A stretch of 61,418 bases of DNA, from positions 1 through 61,418 of the forward strand of contig LJUQ01000012.1 in the NCBI GenBank assembly GCA_001304505.1. Reading direction: 5' to 3'. The notes under the pieces were generated by a model. That model saw only the letters and a program-made list of their open reading frames with translations, searched no databases and had not been told where the DNA came from. Positions 29,230 to 41,018 of this stretch are shown piece after piece. A program made the position numbers and the translations under genes. The number at the start of each line of letters is the position of its first letter. Position 1 is the first letter of the stretch. The DNA comes from Bacteroides sp. SM23_62_1. GTDB taxonomy: Bacteria > Bacteroidota > Bacteroidia > Bacteroidales > SM23-62.

Positions 29230-29245
29230 TTATGAGTATGATAAA

Positions 29246-29328
29246 GGTCACGGAGAATCACAGAGATGAGGCAGAACCACAGATAAATTCTCTGTAGAAC
29301 TCAATATACTCTTTGATTCTCTGTGCCC
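29246..29328. repeat. CACAGAG-unit palindrome, empty copy 1
   Basis: GGTCACGGAG AATCACAGAG ATGAGGCAGA ACCACAGAT / CTCTGTAG..CTCTTTGATT CTCTGTGCCC. Confidence 0.8.
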
Positions 29329-29410: not shown

Positions 29411-30880
29411 ATGGACCATATACTTTACTTATATAACACACTATCACATACAAAGGAGAAATTCGAACCGTTTCATCCCCCGCTGGTTGGGCTATATGTC
29501 TGCGGGCCCACGGTATACGGGGATCCCCATCTCGGTCATGCCCGCCCGGCAATAACTTTCGACCTGTTATACCGCTATCTCACGCACCTGGGTTTTAAGG
29601 TCCGTTATGTAAGAAACATCACAGATGTGGGTCATCTGGAACAGGATCTGGATGAAGGGGAAGACAAGATTGCCAGACAGGCCAGGATTGAAAAGATGGA
29701 ACCAATGGAAGTGGTTCAGTATTATATGAACCGCTACCACGATACAATGCGGAAATTGAATGTTCTCCCTCCAAATATTGAACCCCTTGCATCCGGACAT
29801 ATTATTGAACAGCAGGAACTGGTTAAGAAATTAATTGATAACGGATATGCATACGAAAGTAATGGTTCGGTTTATTTTGATGTGGAGAAATATAACAATA
29901 AAAATCATTATGGTAAACTTTCAGGCAGAAAAACTGAAGATTTACTGGCTGCTTCCCGCGAACTTGAAAAACAATCAGATAAGAGGAATCCATTAGATTT
30001 TGCTCTATGGAAGAAAGCTGAACCGCAACATATTATGCGCTGGCCTTCCCCCTGGAGCGATGGCTTCCCCGGCTGGCATGTTGAGTGTTCGGTAATGAGC
30101 CAGAAATACCTGGGTAACAGATTTGATATCCATGGTGGTGGTATGGACCTCCTGTTTCCTCATCATGAATGTGAAATAGCACAGACAGTTGCCAGCCAGG
30201 GAACGGAATCAGTTAAATACTGGATGCATAATAATATGGTAACCCTGAATGGAAAGAAAATGGGTAAATCACTCGGTAATTCCATAACCCTGGAGGAATT
30301 TATTACGGGACATCACAAACTCCTCAGTAATGCATATAGTCCAATGACAATCAGGTTCTTTATGCTTCAGGCCCATTACAGGAGTACGCTGGATTTTTCC
30401 AATGAGGCATTGCAGGCTGCAGCAAAAGGGCTTGACAGGTTGATGGAAGGATTTAAAAATATTGATAAGATTATCCCGGCTAAAAAATCCACTATCAATC
30501 CGGACCGCATTAAAAAGGAGCTATATGATGCTATGAATGATGATCTGAACAGTCCTATAGCCATATCACATCTTTTTGATGGTATCAGGGATATTAATTC
30601 AGTTGTCTCAGGAAATGAGAGCCTTAACTCATCGGATCTGGTGAAGATAAAAAAAATCTATCATACCTTCATATTCGATATCCTTGGACTTCAGGAGGAA
30701 AAGGATGATGCAAAAGGAAAAGGCCTGCTTTCCGACCTGATAAATCTCCTGCTCATGATACGTATTGATGCCAGGAAAAGAAAAGATTTTGAAACTGCCG
30801 ACCGGATCAGGGATGAATTATCCAGATTGGGAGTGGAAGTCCGGGATGTGAAAGATGGTTATGAGTGGAAGATAAATTAG
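29411..30880 (+). CDS. cysS: Cysteine--tRNA ligase
   Basis: '[15 protein letters not shown]', 'DFALWK', 'PGWHVECS', '[15 protein letters not shown]', 'KMGKSLGN'. Confidence 0.97.
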
Positions 30881-30966
30881 GTCACAGAGTAATACAGAGA
30901 AATATTGAGAACCACAGAGTAATTTCTCTGTGGTTCTTATTTATACCCTGTGATCCTGTATAAACC
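30880..30966. repeat. CACAGAG-unit palindrome, empty copy 2
   Basis: GGTCACAGAG TAATACAGAG AAATATTGAG AACCACAGAG / CTCTGTGGTT CTTATTTATA CCCTGTGATC CTGTATAAACC; begins on the last base of the cysS stop codon. Confidence 0.8.
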
Positions 30967-32805: not shown

Positions 32806-32945
32806 TTATTGCCGATTTCACCGATTATAAAGCAGATTCCGCCGGTCATAAATAACCGGGATTTTAAATATCCGCGAAATCTGCGTTAATATCTGAGGTA
32901 ATCCCTGCCTGCGTGCCGAAGCACTTCGGCAGGCAGGGGCGAGAA
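32806..32945. repeat. Palindromic element with GC(A/C)GAT / ATC(T/G)GCG units, interrupted by a 34-bp CCTGCC insert (32904-32937)
   Basis: Left: gccgat, caccgat, gcagat, gccggt. Right: atccgcg, atctgcg, atctgag, atc[insert]ggcgagaa. Confidence 0.7.
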
Positions 32946-32989
32946 GCCTTATATATCAAATATTAATATATTAATTCGTTGTTTTAATT

Positions 32990-33631
32990 ATGATCGATCT
33001 GAAAAACATTAAAAACATCATCCTTGACCTGGGAAGGGTTATTCTTGAAATCCACCTTGAAAAAACCATCATTGCATTTAAAGAATTTGGCATCCCTCAG
33101 ATTGATGATCTTGATATCGTATTTGCCAGGTATCCTTTTTTTTACCATTTTGAAATAGGAACAATCCGTCCTGAACAGTTTATATCCGAAATCCGGAAAG
33201 CTTCCGGAAATAATATACCGGATCATGTTATTGCTGATGCCTGGAATGCGATGATCGGGGGATTCATCGATGGATCGATTGATACAATCATGAAGTTAAA
33301 ATTAAAATACCGGGTGTTCCTGCTCAGTAATACCAATGCAATGCATGAAATAGTATACAATAACCATCTGAAAAAGGATCATGGTATTGCAAATCTTTCA
33401 GAATTATTTGAAAAAGTATATTATTCCCACACCCTTCATATGAGTAAACCCGATATCAAAATATTTGAATATGTTTTGAAAGACAGTAATCTTGTTCCGG
33501 AAGAAACCTTATTTGTTGATGATCTCCTGATTCATATTGAAAATGCAGCTAAACTTGGAATACAAACATATCAACTTGTGCCTCCACTACAGATAAAGGA
33601 TATATTCTTTCAGGTCACAGAGAACCTATGA
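32990..33631 (+). CDS. HAD-superfamily phosphatase (YihX-like)
   Basis: 'ILDLGRV' motif I, 'LLSNTN', 'KPD', 'FVDD'. Confidence 0.88.
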   Translation: MIDLKNIKNIILDLGRVILEIHLEKTIIAFKEFGIPQIDDLDIVFARYPFFYHFEIGTIRPEQFISEIRKASGNNIPDHVIADAWNAMIGGFIDGSIDTIMKLKLKYRVFLLSNTNAMHEIVYNNHLKKDHGIANLSELFEKVYYSHTLHMSKPDIKIFEYVLKDSNLVPEETLFVDDLLIHIENAAKLGIQTYQLVPPLQIKDIFFQVTENL

Positions 33632-33697
33632 GACAAAATAGATCCACAGAGTTTTTTCTTTGTGGTTATTATAAAATCTCTGATGCCCTCTGTGCGC
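33613..33697. repeat. CACAGAG-unit palindrome, empty copy 3
   Basis: GGTCACAGAG AACCTATGAG ACAAAATAG ATCCACAGAG / CTTTGTGGTT ATTATAAAAT CTCTGATGCC CTCTGTGCGC. Confidence 0.78.
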
Positions 33698-33713: not shown

Positions 33714-34820
33714 ATGTTAATTAACGGAAAAGCATATCAGGCAATCTGGCTTGATGAGACAGACCAAAAAACTGTCAGATTCATCAATCAGAATGAACTC
33801 CCTTTCCGGTTTGTCATTGACGAACTTCATACTGCACAGGATGCATTGAATGCTATCCGGGAAATGAAAGTAAGAGGCGCACCACTAATCGGTGTAACCG
33901 CAGCATTTGGTATTTATCTTGCAACCCTCGAAGCAGTAAAAAATAAAGATCCCTTACAAAATATTTTCTCCTTCGCTGAAAAACTGCGTAACGTCCGGCC
34001 AACAGCTGTTAATCTTGACTTTGCAGTAAATCGTCTGACCGAGACTATCAGATCTTTTACAAATCCCGAAAAATTACCCGAAGCAACATTGAAGGCCACT
34101 TTAAATATCCTGAATGATGAAACAGAATCATGCCGGCAGATAGGGCTTCATGGATTCACTGTTTTAGATACGATATATAAAGAAAAATCCAAAAAAACCG
34201 TGAATATATTAACTCATTGCAATGCAGGATGGCTTGCCTGTATTGATTATGGAACCGCCACAGCCCCTATATATATGGCATACGATCATGGTATCCCCGT
34301 CCATGTGTGGGTTGATGAAACCCGCCCAAGGAACCAGGGAAGCCGGCTAACTGCCTGGGAACTTTTACAGCATGGTGTTCCCCATACTGTGATTGTCGAT
34401 AATGCAGGAGGTCATCTTATGCAACATGGGTTGGTTGACCTGGTAATCGTAGGAAGTGATCGCACAACCCGTTCAGGTGATGTGGCCAATAAAATCGGAA
34501 CCTATCTGAAAGCACTGGCAGCAAAAGATAATCATGTGCCCTTTTATGTCGCCCTCCCATCATCCTCAATAGATTTTTCGATTCGGAATGGCTTCCGTGA
34601 AATTCCTATCGAACAAAGAGATCCGGATGAGGTCAGATATATAGAAGGTCTTGACCAATCCGAAAGAAAGAAGGTATTGACCATGGATCCTGCCAGCCCT
34701 GTTTCCAATTATGGTTTTGACGTAACCCCTGCCAGGCTCATATCTGGATTAATTACTGAAAGAGGAATATGCGAAGCTTCTGAAAAAGGCCTGGCCGAAC
34801 TGTTTCAGGAAAAATTCTAG
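33714..34820 (+). CDS. mtnA: S-methyl-5-thioribose-1-phosphate isomerase
   Basis: 'VRGAPLIG', 'RPTAVNL', 'LTHCNAG', 'DETRPRNQG', 'GDVANKIGT', 'FDVTP'. Confidence 0.95.
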   Translation: MLINGKAYQAIWLDETDQKTVRFINQNELPFRFVIDELHTAQDALNAIREMKVRGAPLIGVTAAFGIYLATLEAVKNKDPLQNIFSFAEKLRNVRPTAVNLDFAVNRLTETIRSFTNPEKLPEATLKATLNILNDETESCRQIGLHGFTVLDTIYKEKSKKTVNILTHCNAGWLACIDYGTATAPIYMAYDHGIPVHVWVDETRPRNQGSRLTAWELLQHGVPHTVIVDNAGGHLMQHGLVDLVIVGSDRTTRSGDVANKIGTYLKALAAKDNHVPFYVALPSSSIDFSIRNGFREIPIEQRDPDEVRYIEGLDQSERKKVLTMDPASPVSNYGFDVTPARLISGLITERGICEASEKGLAELFQEKF

Positions 34821-34833
34821 AAATTATTTTCAA

Positions 34834-35300
34834 GGTCACAGAGGCTCACAGAGAATAAAGAGTGCCACAGAGATTAGTTTATGATCCTTTTAAGGCCATC
34901 TTTTAATCGAAGTACGTTAATATTAATTAATAATCCTAATTTGTAATTTCCTAACTTTAAGTAAGTTATGACTTGTGCTGTATGAATAATATTTATTGCT
35001 TCAACTGCTTTTAACTCGACAACCACTTTATCCTCAACCAACCAATCTATTCTGTAGCCATAATTAATAATAACTTCTTCATATTCAAGTGGTAAGATGA
35101 CTTTCTTCCTGACAAACAAACCACTTTTTGTTAAATCATAATATAAGCATTCCTTATAGGCATTTTCAAGCATACCAGGTCCAAATCTTTTATGTACCTT
35201 GATAGCACAATTGATAATTTTGCCAGTAATTATATTTAGTTCCATATTCTTTTCATTTTGACTCTGTGGTTCTCAGATTTCTCTGTGATACTCCGTGACC
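34834..35300. mobile_element. Putative GxxExxY-nuclease cassette bounded by 39-bp inverted CACAGAG-unit arms
   Basis: Left arm 34834-34872 GGTCACAGAG GCTCACAGAG AATAAAGAG TGCCACAGAG; right arm 35262-35300 CTCTGTGGTT CTCAGATTT CTCTGTGATA CTCCGTGACC. The arms are seen directly; mobility is inferred. Confidence 0.6.
34874..35245 (-). CDS. GxxExxY family protein (PD-(D/E)xK nuclease fold)
   Basis: 'VHKRFGPGMLENAY' (GxxExxY), 'RIDWLVEDKVVVELKA', 'AQVITYLK', 'GLLIN'. Confidence 0.92.
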   Translation of the reverse strand: MELNIITGKIINCAIKVHKRFGPGMLENAYKECLYYDLTKSGLFVRKKVILPLEYEEVIINYGYRIDWLVEDKVVVELKAVEAINIIHTAQVITYLKLGNYKLGLLININVLRLKDGLKRIIN

Positions 35301-35382
35301 TCTATATCTTTATCCCAAAAACTATGAATTATCGGTATCCTTTGTCTTTATTTTTGATTAACTTTTAAAACTTATTGATCGT

Positions 35383-36126
35383 ATGAAAATAGCTATCATT
35401 TCAGATATCCATTCAGACATCCGGAGCCTTGAAAAAGCATTGAAAATGATAAGAAAAACAGGCTTTGACCAGCTTGTTTGCCTGGGTGATATTGCCGGAT
35501 ATAGCCACCATTATCATAAAGATCTGGATGGCAGGGATTCCAATGGTTGTATCGAGATGGTTGAAGAAACATGTAACATTACCATAGCAGGTAACCACGA
35601 CCATTATTGGTCCGGGAAGCTCCCGGTTTACCTGAAGAAAAAAATATATCCAGATAACTGGTTTGAGCTTGACCTGTCAGAACAAATAAAAATCTCACGT
35701 AATACCATCTGGCTTTATCATGACGAAATAAAGGATACCATCAATGATGATCACATACAGTTTCTCGCATCCCTTCCTGAAACACATATTTTTCCCGTTG
35801 AGAATTTCACTATCCTTTTCTCTCATTTTCTCTATCCGGATCTTACCGGGGCCACAAAATTTTTCCCTTCAAAAATCGGTCATTTCAGGCCTCATTTAAA
35901 ATACATGAAGCAGCAAAAAAGTCTGTATGGAATTATGGGGCATGGCCACCTGCAGGGATATTCCATTACCTCCAGGAAGCAATTCAGATATAATTATTTT
36001 GGTAAAACAGGGCTGGATTTAATCCCGCAGATCATAATAGGCCCGGCGATTACCAGGGGAGATAGCAAAAATGGCTTTATGATTCTGAATACTTCAATAC
36101 CGGAGCTGGAGGTTATTCAAATATAA
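35383..36126 (+). CDS. Calcineurin-like metallophosphoesterase
   Basis: 'ISDIH', 'LGDI', 'GNHD', 'SH', 'GHGH'. Confidence 0.88.
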   Translation: MKIAIISDIHSDIRSLEKALKMIRKTGFDQLVCLGDIAGYSHHYHKDLDGRDSNGCIEMVEETCNITIAGNHDHYWSGKLPVYLKKKIYPDNWFELDLSEQIKISRNTIWLYHDEIKDTINDDHIQFLASLPETHIFPVENFTILFSHFLYPDLTGATKFFPSKIGHFRPHLKYMKQQKSLYGIMGHGHLQGYSITSRKQFRYNYFGKTGLDLIPQIIIGPAITRGDSKNGFMILNTSIPELEVIQI

Positions 36127-38745: not shown

Positions 38746-40860
38746 ATGCCAGATCAAAAAGCGACATCCACCCGATTTAAACTTATTGGCACAGTAATTT
38801 TTATTTTTACTCTTTTTATCATCGCCTGGTATTTTAATTACCCTGAGATCCTGCTTAAAAAACCTCAGTCTATTCACTTCCCCAGGCAGGCAGATTGTGC
38901 GTCATTAGCCCTGAATTATTACCAGAGTGATATGGATTTTTTTCATCCCGAAATCCACAACCTGACCTCCGATGATGGGACCAGTGGTAAATGTGCACCC
39001 AGCGAATTGCCGTTCCTGTATTACCTGGTGGCAATACTTTATAAAATGTTTGGGTATCATGACTTTATTTACAGAATCATCAATACCCTGATTTTCTTCC
39101 TCGGACTATTTTACTTTTTCAGGCTTCTGTATGTATTGCTGAATGATATATTCTGGTCGGTATCACTGCCTCTCATCCTGCTTTCATCACCCGTAATAGC
39201 CTATTATGCTAATAATTACCTGACAAATACCTCTGCACTGGCTTTTGTTATTATGGCATGGTTTTATTTTATCAATTATTATATTCATGGACAACATAAA
39301 AATCTTTATCTCAGCGCATTATTCTTTTTCCTTGCCGGTGCATTTAAAATAACCGGGCTTTTCAGCCTGCTATCCCTTGCGATAATATTTACTCTGGAAG
39401 GATTGAATATTATCCGTTGCCATCAGGATGGCAGAAGGATTTTTGGTAATGGTTTAAAACGGATTATCCCTTATATCCCTGGTGTCATTATTATCTTTTT
39501 ATGGATAGTTTATGCGCACCGGTATAATCAAATCCATGACTGTTATTACTTCTCAACAAGGTCATTCCCCATCTGGGATATGAATACGGAAGCTACAAGA
39601 AATGTCATCAAGGCTGTGGTTAAAATCTGGTTCACTCAGTATTTCAGTATTTGGATATATTTCTTCCTTATCATATTGTTTATTTATATGCTGGTTAACC
39701 GTCTTTCCGCTCATCCTCTCCTGTTCTATACCATTATGTTTCTTATTCCAATTGTCCTGCTTTATGTTCTGATGCAATTTTTTATGTTGAAGGATCACGA
39801 TTATTATACAATCAACATCTATATTCTGCCAATATTCATAATTATCTCTTCATTCAGCCTTATGAAGCAAAAACATTACAGACTCTTTAAATCCCTCATT
39901 TTAAAATCCCTGTTTTTTTGCTTTGTCATTTATCATCTCTGGTATGCTAAATCCAAACTGGATGAAAGATATAACAATAAAGAAAACATTTATTACATGC
40001 TTCATGATTACTATGAAATCACACCTTTTCTGGAACAGAATGGGATCCTGCTGAAGGATACAGTTATTTCCATCTCAGGTGAAACGCAGCTTCCTCTTTA
40101 CCTGATGAACCGTAAAGGATGGATTGAACACATTGAAACACAATTTGGTGAAGGAGAAAAAATCCTTTATAACAGGGATAGTACCGGTATTCAACACTCC
40201 ATAGATAAGGGGGCTAAATACATGATTGTCAGGGACCTGGAAGAACTTATCGTGAAACCATATCTTCAGAGCTATGCTACAAACCTCGTGGGCCGTTTTA
40301 ATAAGATCCATATTTTCGATCTGGTAAATAAAAATCCCAATTTTACAATCCCTGAAAGAAAGATCCTGCAGTCTATACTGTGCGATGCCGAGCAGGTTAC
40401 AAATGACAGCAAGGACTACCTTTCCTTCTCTGATTCCCTTTTATTTGAATTTGGAATAACACAGAGTGACGAAACATCATGGTCAGGAAAGTATTCTGCC
40501 AAACTTAATCCTTCACATCCCTTTGGCATGACAATAACTCTCCCACAGGTTAAGACAGGTGAGAGCTTTGCAATAGAAGTTAAATATTCCGGTGTCCCTG
40601 AAAAGGGATTGATTATTGCCTCTGCATTAACGTCTGACGTATTCTATTATAATGAAAATACGATAATTCCGGATACGGTGCCGGGCTGGTATAATATTTC
40701 TGCAGAATTCTTTGTTCCCGGGGAAATGGATGGTAAAGAAATGAAAATATATCTCTGGTATACAGGCAATGATTCTGCTTATTTTGATGATTTTAAAATA
40801 ACCAGATATAGTTCATATTCATTTGTAAATAAGGTCACAGAGGGCCACAGAGATAAATGA
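38746..40860 (+). CDS. Polytopic membrane glycosyltransferase (GT-C/ArnT-like) with C-terminal beta-sandwich domain
   Basis: 'HFPRQADCAS..LNYY', 'SELPFLYY', many TM helices; soluble C-terminal 'WSGKYSAKL...YFDDFKI'. Confidence 0.65.
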   Translation: MPDQKATSTRFKLIGTVIFIFTLFIIAWYFNYPEILLKKPQSIHFPRQADCASLALNYYQSDMDFFHPEIHNLTSDDGTSGKCAPSELPFLYYLVAILYKMFGYHDFIYRIINTLIFFLGLFYFFRLLYVLLNDIFWSVSLPLILLSSPVIAYYANNYLTNTSALAFVIMAWFYFINYYIHGQHKNLYLSALFFFLAGAFKITGLFSLLSLAIIFTLEGLNIIRCHQDGRRIFGNGLKRIIPYIPGVIIIFLWIVYAHRYNQIHDCYYFSTRSFPIWDMNTEATRNVIKAVVKIWFTQYFSIWIYFFLIILFIYMLVNRLSAHPLLFYTIMFLIPIVLLYVLMQFFMLKDHDYYTINIYILPIFIIISSFSLMKQKHYRLFKSLILKSLFFCFVIYHLWYAKSKLDERYNNKENIYYMLHDYYEITPFLEQNGILLKDTVISISGETQLPLYLMNRKGWIEHIETQFGEGEKILYNRDSTGIQHSIDKGAKYMIVRDLEELIVKPYLQSYATNLVGRFNKIHIFDLVNKNPNFTIPERKILQSILCDAEQVTNDSKDYLSFSDSLLFEFGITQSDETSWSGKYSAKLNPSHPFGMTITLPQVKTGESFAIEVKYSGVPEKGLIIASALTSDVFYYNENTIIPDTVPGWYNISAEFFVPGEMDGKEMKIYLWYTGNDSAYFDDFKITRYSSYSFVNKVTEGHRDK

Positions 40861-40918
40861 GATACACAGGGAATGCATCTCTGTGGTTCTCTTAAACACA
40901 CAGTGGCTCTCTGGGACC
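40833..40918. repeat. CACAGAG-unit palindrome, empty copy 4
   Basis: GGTCACAGAG GGCCACAGAG ATAAATGAG ATACACAGGG / CTCTGTGGTT CTCTTAAACA CACAGTGGCT CTCTGGGACC. Confidence 0.82.
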
Positions 40919-41018
40919 TTTTTTATAAATAACATCAGGATAACAATCAAAATAATTCAGTTTTTAGTACCTTAACACCCTTATTCATTTATCATTAAGA
41001 ATATTATAAGAGTGGGAA

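Follow-up and report, generated by a model that had tools for sequence, protein, structure and literature searches.

Between mtnA and a phosphoesterase-like gene of Bacteroides sp. SM23_62_1 (assembly GCA_001304505.1, here G000) lies a 469-nt unit in which a small gene of the GxxExxY family is enclosed by two inverted arrays of a 7-nt word. This unit, the cassette, is the subject of the analysis. The window, by which we mean the whole stretch of DNA analysed, is the entire 61,418-nt contig C17 (LJUQ01000012.1) of a 4.74-Mb assembly in 305 contigs, with 40% GC and 92% completeness. The cassette spans 34833..35301. Its left arm (34833..34872) begins with AGGT and continues with CACAGAG at 34837, 34847, and 34866, a degenerate word standing between the last two, in modules of about 10 nt (AGGT-CACAGAG-NNN-CACAGAG-(degenerate word)-CACAGAG). 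The right arm (35262..35301) is an inverted copy of the left, with CTCTGTG at 35262 and 35281, CTCCGTG at 35291, and GACCT at its end. By a repeat search the arms are 40 nt each, 78% complementary, and separated by 389 nt, and the duplex that they could form with each other has a predicted energy of -52.1 kcal/mol. The gene (34874..35245, minus strand, 123 amino acids, identified by open reading frame [ORF] call and profile matches, GC about 30%) fills the space between them, leaving 1 nt between its stop codon and the left arm and 16 nt between its ATG and the right arm.

The encoded protein matches PF13366 (PDDEXK_3) with an E value of 2.6e-37 and 128.2 bits (cut-off 22) over profile positions 3-117 of 117, its sole Pfam match at E<=0.01, and TIGR04256 (GxxExxY) with an E value of 7.3e-38 and 129.5 bits (cut-off 35) over positions 2-116 of 116. 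Its motifs are complete (G24-x-x-E27-x-x-Y30, D67, E77-x-K79, and Q91-x-x-x-Y95), and in an alignment of 28 sequences, the window protein plus 27 homologues of 60-85% identity, the columns of G24, E27, Y30, D67, E77, K79, Q91, and Y95 are invariant. An AlphaFold2 model computed from this alignment has a pLDDT (predicted local distance difference test) of 94.4, and the predicted model adopts a PD-(D/E)XK, restriction-endonuclease-like fold. Its top structural neighbours are Cas4 SSO0001 (Z 7.8), BglII (7.6), BpuSI (7.4), and Hjc (6.8); the neighbours are all PD-(D/E)XK nucleases, at middling Z scores of 6-7.8 among which none stands out. A Foldseek search with the model returned nothing at E<=0.001 and weak matches that were again all PD-(D/E)XK nucleases, while no solved structure was meaningfully related by sequence (best E 0.47). 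A homodimer prediction, run without controls, scored 0.00. No match was found in phage records by tblastn at 1e-5, and a metagenome scan gave no relative closer than 68% identity, hence no recent sister copies for comparison. The database descriptions of TIGR04256 and of TIGR02436, a family considered below, mention large paralogous families. Literature naming GxxExxY yielded nothing on function, in searches mostly without subscription journals, and in a 2012 survey of PD-(D/E)XK proteins the function of PF13366 is given as 'Unknown' (PMC3424549).

On one side the gene is flanked by mtnA (TIGR00512, 397 bits, cut-off 279) and on the other by a gene with a weak match to YfcE-like phosphodiesterases or phosphoesterases. 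Both are on the plus strand and the GxxExxY gene is antisense to each. GC content is 29-31% along the GxxExxY gene versus 38-48% in mtnA, and this low GC together with the antisense position suggests foreign DNA. An initial annotation of this stretch had described a 123-amino-acid gene with intact GxxExxY, D...ExK, and QxxxY motifs, about 29% GC and thus poorer in GC than mtnA, antisense to both neighbours, with its stop codon 1 nt and its ATG 16 nt from two 39-bp inverted arms. The measurements above agree with this description throughout, except that the arms are 40 nt long.

The words of the arms recur through the window. CACAGAG occurs 20 times versus 4.2 +/- 1.8 expected, a count that 0 of 100 shuffles reached, and four tandem pairs of the word are found where 0 are expected. 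A chance origin of arms and words is ruled out by these shuffles together with the control intervals given below. Four gene-less palindromes consist of CACAGAG words around a short loop: P1 at about 29245..29325, P2 at about 30879..30957, P3 at about 33612..33697, and P5 at about 40832..40919. These are the short-loop empty copies that had been proposed to exist beside the gene-filled palindrome. The left arm of P3 (33612-33631) also encodes the last codons (..QVTENL) and the stop of a HAD-type hydrolase gene (32990-33631), which suggests that insertion rewrote the C-terminus of this neighbour. A further palindrome, decayed and of CGCAGAT type, has approximate limits of 32815..32948, with a 37-nt GC-rich hairpin (CCCTGCCTGC...GCAGGCAGG, 32901-32937) nested in its right arm. 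Three right arms of CGCAGAT type in G000 have this hairpin nested at one and the same position, namely the present arm, one on C56 (about 1721), and one on C237, and the genome G001 has copies of the stretch at 97-100% identity. No Rfam family and no rRNA was found in the window.

Across the source genome the gene-less copies far outnumber the genes. By tblastn, G000 has two GxxExxY copies, the intact one of the window and a frameshifted pseudogene at C191:3543-3916, which lies between inverted arms of CCACTAATTCACGAATT type (CACGAAT/CACTAAT type), a word type with 1-3 tandem pairs in G000. With the word relaxed to CRCARAK, there are 146 clusters of at least three words ordered as words, loop, and inverted words, versus 14 in the opposite order, and 34833-35301 is the only gene-filled palindrome in the genome. 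A de novo 7-mer scan returned CACAGAG, CGCAAAG, CGCAGAT, and CACAAAG as the top palindrome units. Two more modular palindrome families are present in G000, one with units close to AATGGAATA at about 10 loci, the other with units close to GTTAAATTGTTAAA at about 8.

Distances between word starts within the G000 palindromes cluster at 9-10, 19-21, and 29-30 nt. Aligning copies by their outer word alone leaves the next word with a conservation of about 1-1.4 bits and the 3-nt spacer with about 0.2 bits; most gene-less copies are alike in their words only, with differing spacers and loops. Such conservation of words beside variable spacers would point to selection on the words. Of the CACAGAG palindromes, 47/54 fold better than shuffled sequence at z<-2 (median -25.8 kcal/mol for 79 nt, z -4.5), and within the arms of the folded palindromes pairing reaches 83% in words and 50% in spacers. 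None of 75 tested palindromes lies inside an ORF of at least 120 amino acids. Their distribution over tandem, convergent, and divergent intergenic regions equals the background (divergent, 13/70 versus 120/594). A reading of the palindromes as terminators only was rejected, since they show no bias to gene 3' ends or convergent gene pairs.

The history of the site can be approached through relatives, in which the region is syntenic; G001-G004 belong to the same genus, and further genomes carry higher numbers. The mtnA junction holds no insert or palindrome in 7 of 9 relatives (G003, G004, G010, G012, G013, G014, and G015). In six of these (G003, G010, G012, G013, G014, and G015) the mtnA stop is followed by the next start after 0-3 nt, and in G004 the junction measures about 85 nt, with a spacer that resembles the G000 stretch to the right of the cassette. 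The remaining two, G001 and G002, carry an arm-gene-arm unit at this junction, with arms of CGCAGAT type. The GxxExxY protein of G002 at this site is 37% identical to the window protein, while the flanking MtnA proteins are 83% identical, and the G001 copy contains a stop codon. These comparisons show that the cassette entered the mtnA junction as one unit, arms and gene together. MtnA identity to G000 falls from 83% in G002 to 75% in G001, 69% in G003, and 68% in G004, and this series suggests that the CGCAGAT cassette was the earlier occupant of the site, which G000 swapped for the present one. The earlier proposal that gene and arms form a discrete unit, filled or absent at orthologous sites, is borne out here.

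Re-use of sites by differing elements is frequent within the genus: seven sites were compared, two of which keep one word type and five of which, the mtnA junction among them, hold differing element types. At the P2 site a CACAGAG palindrome is present in G000 and G001 and did not appear in the stretches of G003 and G004 that were compared, and at the P3 site the same word type occurs in G000, G001, and G002 and is absent from G003 and G004. The P1 site holds a CACAGAG palindrome in G000 and G001 and, in G002, the remnant of a gene for a four-helix-bundle protein with AGAAGNT arms. The P5 site is of CACAGAG type in G000 and carries a CGCAGAT-type palindrome in G002. The CGCAGAT palindrome at 32815-32948, decayed in G000, is intact in G002, and G001 has there a four-helix-bundle pseudogene with GCAGCAG arms. 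Elsewhere in G000, the site C287:10940-11060 carries a CGCAGAT palindrome without a gene, as does its counterpart in G002; in G001 the site is occupied by a filled CACAGAG cassette, and in G003 and G004 it holds no element. Such re-use suggests that incoming elements may aim for resident palindromes or take their place. Among the sites compared, no orthologous site was found that has a single word type in both the filled and the gene-less state, two further sites showing differing types or a nested insertion. Filled and insert-free flanks within the genus have diverged too far for a target duplication to be read.

Four metagenome DNA runs cover the window site, and they show the filled allele only; among the public runs listed, none of RNA contains the stretch. 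A contig of run X1 spans 34553-35532, and with it the whole cassette, with zero differences. As to filled and empty alleles, then, the insert is present or absent among relatives, and the runs add the filled state alone. One short contig each in runs X3 and X4 joins 33626 (in P3) to 34866 (the inner left-arm word) with 18 other letters between; this is probably a repeat-induced contig join or another copy, and we did not use it as evidence.

Arms are a common feature of the GxxExxY family. The family has a match in 18 of 41 related genomes, and 16 of 24 genes with enough flank in these relatives, the window's included, have flanking inverted repeats at z>3. The words of the arms vary by locus (CACAGAG, CACAAAG, CACTAAG, CGCAAAG, CGCAGAT, CACATAG, CACGAAT, GCGAATT, and CAGAATT). 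Among other, named genomes, 40 of 80 GxxExxY loci have flanking inverted repeats at z>4; these loci belong mostly to Bacteroidota of many orders, with a few labelled Ignavibacteria, Treponema, Pirellulales, or Bosea, of which some labels may be binning errors. Among controls, the pass rate was 1/200 for random intervals and 6/286 for small ORFs. A word rule asks for the heptamer CRCNNAK at least three times on both sides, inverted. Of 210 loci supplied, 202 gave a match, and the rule was applied to the 191 genes flanked on each side by 100 nt or more. It was passed by 108 genes, 97 in the arrangement of the window and 11 in the opposite one, and by 0 of 1000 random intervals. The flank comparison across genomes that the initial annotation had suggested therefore finds arms around 108/191 of these genes.

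Proteins and words covary to some degree. Identity to the window protein falls with word distance, from 70% and 59% for proteins with CACAGAG arms through 59% and 57% (CACAAAG), 46% and 46% (CGCAAAG), and 44% and 37% (CGCAGAT) to 38% and 32% (CACGAAT). A quick maximum-likelihood tree of these 108 labelled proteins has 30 changes of word label, versus 58.2 +/- 2.7 after shuffling (500 shuffles, minimum 50). Linked inheritance of arms and gene would equally yield this signal. On the tree the CRCARAG variants are scattered through proteins about 60% identical. Conceivably all words of the CRCARAG group are served by one protein, a distant protein being required only for words farther off, such as CGCAGAT; this would agree with the standing of CGCAGAT in G000, where it is rarest and most decayed of the types.

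Whole cassettes have also been copied. G033 has 12 GxxExxY paralogues (12 of 13 loci matched), 31-67% identical to one another and each with arms of its own words, and in two pairs the members have 93% protein identity and occupy unlinked sites, on separate contigs. One such pair, L236/L237, was compared base by base: the DNA is 91% identical over 481 nt, the limits of homology coincide with the outer ends of the arms, and the flanks are unrelated. GxxExxY pseudogenes are frequent (G000 C191, G001 C21, and G033 C400). Another repeat was seen in G028 (L253-L260), about 250 bp long, with terminal inverted repeats TTAAGTTTCGCAAGTA and a CACAGAG core in the opposite order, inverted words first. 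Many of its copies are near-identical, spacers included, and contig ends are a frequent location for them, a pattern that a recent burst would leave.

The link between gene and gene-less repeats, which had been proposed from the window, was examined by counting CRCARAK tandem pairs in the 41 related genomes. G000 has 328 pairs, G001 520, and G002 496, while the congeners G003 and G004 have 7 and 4; elsewhere G025 has 75, G028 183, G029 205, G032 190, G033 148, and G039 426. The 23 genomes without a GxxExxY match have 2-24. All 9 genomes with more than 40 pairs thus have GxxExxY matches, and no match-free genome exceeds 24. In the GxxExxY-bearing genomes that are poor in pairs, the arm words lie mostly outside the CRCARAK pattern. 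The contrast holds within the genus, since G003 and G004, like 15 genomes of a sister genus, lack a GxxExxY match and have word pairs at background only. Co-occurrence of this kind upholds the proposed link, and it is seen neither with four-helix-bundle genes nor with Y1 transposase genes.

Counts of homotypic pairs of CACAGAG, CACAAAG, CGCAAAG, and CGCAGAT, in this order, are 75, 78, 40, and 39 in G000; 221, 41, 20, and 96 in G001; 46, 88, 17, and 236 in G002; 147, 6, 5, and 0 in G028; 16, 51, 5, and 9 in G029; and 13, 17, 33, and 2 in G033. The commonest word type is the arm type of an intact gene in G001 (CACAGAG), G002 (CGCAGAT), and G029 (CACAAAG).

REP-associated tyrosine transposases (RAYTs), whose genes pair with repetitive extragenic palindromic (REP) sequences, were considered as mobilisers of the CRCARAK repeats and rejected: the distribution of Y1 genes does not follow that of the repeats, and a REP of another kind accompanies the Y1 gene of G000. 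Y1 transposases are present in 31 of the 41 genomes, repeat-poor ones included, and the PF01797 (Y1) genes of G000 are located away from the cassette. The best of them, an IS200/RAYT-like gene at C212:1400-2080, lies between its own hairpins, GTCAGCT..AGCTGAC, and looks like a separate classical REP/RAYT pair.

A second protein family occurs in the same design. G000 has 9 matches to TIGR02436, the four-helix-bundle (S23p) family, for example at C104:23478-23798 and C37:46940-47263 (L044 and L049), and 13 of 19 four-helix-bundle genes tested in G000 and relatives (L041-L060) have inverted arms at z>3. These arms consist of tandem 6-8-nt words such as TCGTGAG, GGCGTCT, AGGCTA, and GTGACAA, 40-115 nt upstream of the ATG. 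The genes do not track CRCARAK pairs: G004 has 9 genes and 4 pairs, G010 6 and 7, and G028 0 and 183. The two kinds of cassette meet in G002, where comparison of L270 (C182:1-720) with G001 L244 (C174) reveals an AGGCTA-armed four-helix-bundle cassette inserted within a CGCAAAG-type GxxExxY cassette, of which nothing remains but the left arm and, from the nuclease gene, about 70 nt at the 3' end.

That the cassette is mobile or repeat-linked appears well supported by these comparisons. As for its nature, we consider it somewhat probable that 34833-35301 is a small selfish cassette, with a PD-(D/E)XK nuclease gene between phased-heptamer arms, gene-less derivatives resembling MITEs (miniature inverted-repeat transposable elements), and a nuclease that acts on the arms. 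Action of the nuclease itself on the arms is the most economical reading, one weakened by the parallel four-helix-bundle cassettes. According to this scheme the arms would be 3-4 phased heptamer modules (NNN-CACAGAG) around a single GxxExxY gene, and the gene-less palindromes would be non-autonomous derivatives, like MITEs or REPINs (hairpin-forming REP doublets). The nuclease would read the phased heptamers of both arms, whether these are duplex or extruded into a hairpin or cruciform, and would cut at or near the arm ends, starting copying or relocation that host repair or replication could finish. New copies would tend to insert into resident palindromes or to supplant them. No description of this arm-GxxExxY-arm design came up in literature searches, with subscription journals mostly outside their coverage, and the initial annotation likewise knew of no characterised mechanism.

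Several observations count against a nuclease that mobilises its own arms, and many of them would be accommodated if the modular palindrome were itself the mobile or self-renewing unit, handled by host processes (template switching induced by hairpins, or recombination among repeats) or by an enzyme whose gene lies elsewhere, with the genes in the loops as cargo or accessory binders. Two unrelated small-protein families share one design, so the single ORF need not be a catalytic mobilising enzyme. The four-helix-bundle cassettes have their own words and no nuclease domain, persist in GxxExxY-free genomes (9 in G004, 6 in G010), and insert on their own, as in the nested case of G002; a cassette can therefore move without encoding a nuclease. 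Three of four G000 word types lack a cognate gene: the one intact gene has CACAGAG arms, yet CACAAAG pairs are as common (78 versus 75), and for CGCAAAG (40) and CGCAGAT (39) the assembly, 92% complete, contains no cognate. G039 is rich in repeats, with 426 pairs, and its GxxExxY matches are only sub-cut-off and stop-containing, and the sole GxxExxY gene of G028 is without clear arms despite 147 CACAGAG pairs. The 30 word-type switches on the protein tree, fewer than in shuffles yet many, imply that protein-word specificity is loose at best. Further points on the same side are that 83/191 GxxExxY genes fail the word rule; that no target-site duplication is evident in L236/L237, the one pair inspected; that neither an empty allele nor an excision joint at the window site was found in the four metagenome runs, whose contigs are of low depth (about 2-7); and that the 41 related genomes are not independent samples, for which reason no P value is attached to the co-occurrence. 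We nevertheless regard the passenger role of the gene as rather unlikely. CRCARAK palindromes track GxxExxY genes, and not four-helix-bundle or Y1 genes, over the 41 genomes and within the genus; the 60 highest-ranked units that the de novo scan of G000 listed include no words of four-helix-bundle type; arms travelled with the gene in the duplicated cassette inspected (L236/L237); the mtnA site gained arms and gene jointly when compared with insert-free sites; and the catalytic residues are invariant, as expected of an enzyme under selection.

The stability of the hairpins raises the further possibility that the arm stem lets RNase III excise the insert from host transcripts, the protein having a role unrelated to DNA movement. 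Excision would make the cassette tolerable between co-transcribed genes, and the insert-free mtnA junction of 0-3 nt in 6 of 7 relatives indicates that the flanking genes are probably an operon. The arm duplex of -52 kcal/mol and the stable gene-less copies (47/54 at z<-2) are in keeping with such a stem, as are the Coxiella intervening sequence, excised by RNase III and provided with inverted repeats and heptamers (PMC4990558), and the presence here, in the same design, of the four-helix-bundle family of intervening sequences. An explanation by RNA excision leaves the spread of the repeats, the whole-cassette copies, and the co-occurrence with the gene unaccounted for, however, and palindromes occur in divergent intergenic regions at the background rate. 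Spacers are variable and paired at 50% versus 83% for words, which fits word recognition better than stem maintenance. We consider this explanation improbable as a replacement for the selfish cassette, with which it would be compatible. Less probable still, to the point of being a minor contender, is a domesticated host function in which the palindromes act as terminators, mRNA stabilisers, or nucleoid sites and the nuclease as a host maintenance factor, as proposed for RAYTs. A single intact gene beside many palindromes in G000, conserved words with variable spacers, and the position of 75/75 palindromes outside long ORFs are all what such a function would predict. It is harder to reconcile with G003, G004, and the 15 genomes of the sister genus, which have neither a GxxExxY match nor word pairs above background, with the frequent pseudogenes and up to 12 divergent paralogues per genome, with the lack of bias to gene 3' ends, or with the foreign appearance of the gene in GC and orientation.

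A wider proposal, which we put forward tentatively and with less confidence than the selfish cassette itself, is that GxxExxY represents a third repeat-spreading system beside DDE transposases with their MITEs and HUH transposases with their REPINs. Heptamer-reading nucleases would mobilise cassette and hairpins and invade palindromes, and the four-helix-bundle cassettes and 23S rRNA intervening sequences would form a sister branch. The link between gene and word arrays gives the uncharacterised PF13366/GxxExxY family a candidate substrate and a candidate job. If the proposal is true, it supplies an origin for the abundant intergenic hairpin repeats of many Bacteroidota genomes and connects these repeats to the unexplained ORF-bearing intervening sequences of 23S rRNA. 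Naturally occurring protein-word pairs, of which one genus or genome has CACAGAG, CGCAGAT, and CACGAAT types, would be a ready system for studying modular DNA recognition and could yield compact sequence-reading nucleases. In practice, the repeats also fragment assemblies, many of them being found at contig ends, and they change the ends of genes (33612-33631).

Each of several known systems resembles the cassette in part. Free-standing homing endonuclease genes are likewise small nuclease genes that interrupt a sequence found uninterrupted elsewhere, at sites whose occupant is replaceable; the cassette differs from them in having no intron or intein, in a ratio of filled to empty copies of about 1:146 in G000, and in arms that travel with the gene. 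Heptamer arrays are known from Xanthomonas, where GGGAATC arrays are intergenic, form 70-75 convergent (inverted) pairs per genome, and are described as G-quadruplex-forming (PMC4692102); unlike our case, the text of that paper contains no mention of a nuclease, S23p, or four-helix-bundle gene, and its subject is quadruplex formation.

The intervening sequences of 23S rRNA in Coxiella and Leptospira are closer, at about 0.4-0.5 kb with inverted repeats that form a long stem, one small ORF, and tandem heptamers. In PMC4990558, the Coxiella sequence is described as having inverted repeats, with tandem GACAGAT heptamers before the S23p ORF, and as being excised by RNase III, and intervening sequences as sporadic elements whose mobile origin, aided by the ORF, has long been suspected and is undemonstrated. 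They reside in helix 25 or 45 of 23S rRNA whereas the cassette is intergenic, and the ORF of the cassette is predicted to have a nuclease fold instead of the S23p four-helix bundle and is accompanied by many gene-less copies.

With insertion sequences (IS) and MITEs the cassette shares terminal inverted repeats, whole copies at unlinked sites, and abundant short gene-less intergenic derivatives. It departs from IS in that its only ORF, a 123-amino-acid PDDEXK_3 protein, belongs to no known transposase family, and from both in that the one pair inspected shows no evident target-site duplication and most gene-less copies in G000 share words only.

With REP/REPIN-RAYT systems, as they are described, it shares a small gene between inverted copies of a repeat, far more numerous gene-less intergenic copies, and repeat families matched to gene lineages. 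The enzyme is a predicted PD-(D/E)XK protein and not a Y1/HUH transposase, and the arms are phased heptamer arrays where a REP is one hairpin with a conserved tetranucleotide tag. RAYT genes are single and vertically kept, whereas GxxExxY genes are often multi-copy, decayed, and patchy. Set against the single, vertically inherited gene copy per repeat family of a REPtron, the genomes give a mixed picture, with one intact gene and one pseudogene in G000, 12 paralogues in G033, and non-orthologous cassettes at the mtnA site of sister genomes. The analogy with RAYT and REPIN drawn in the initial annotation thus fits in its layout but not in its enzyme, and the paralogues, pseudogenes, and whole-cassette copies give the GxxExxY cassette a character closer to that of IS and MITEs.

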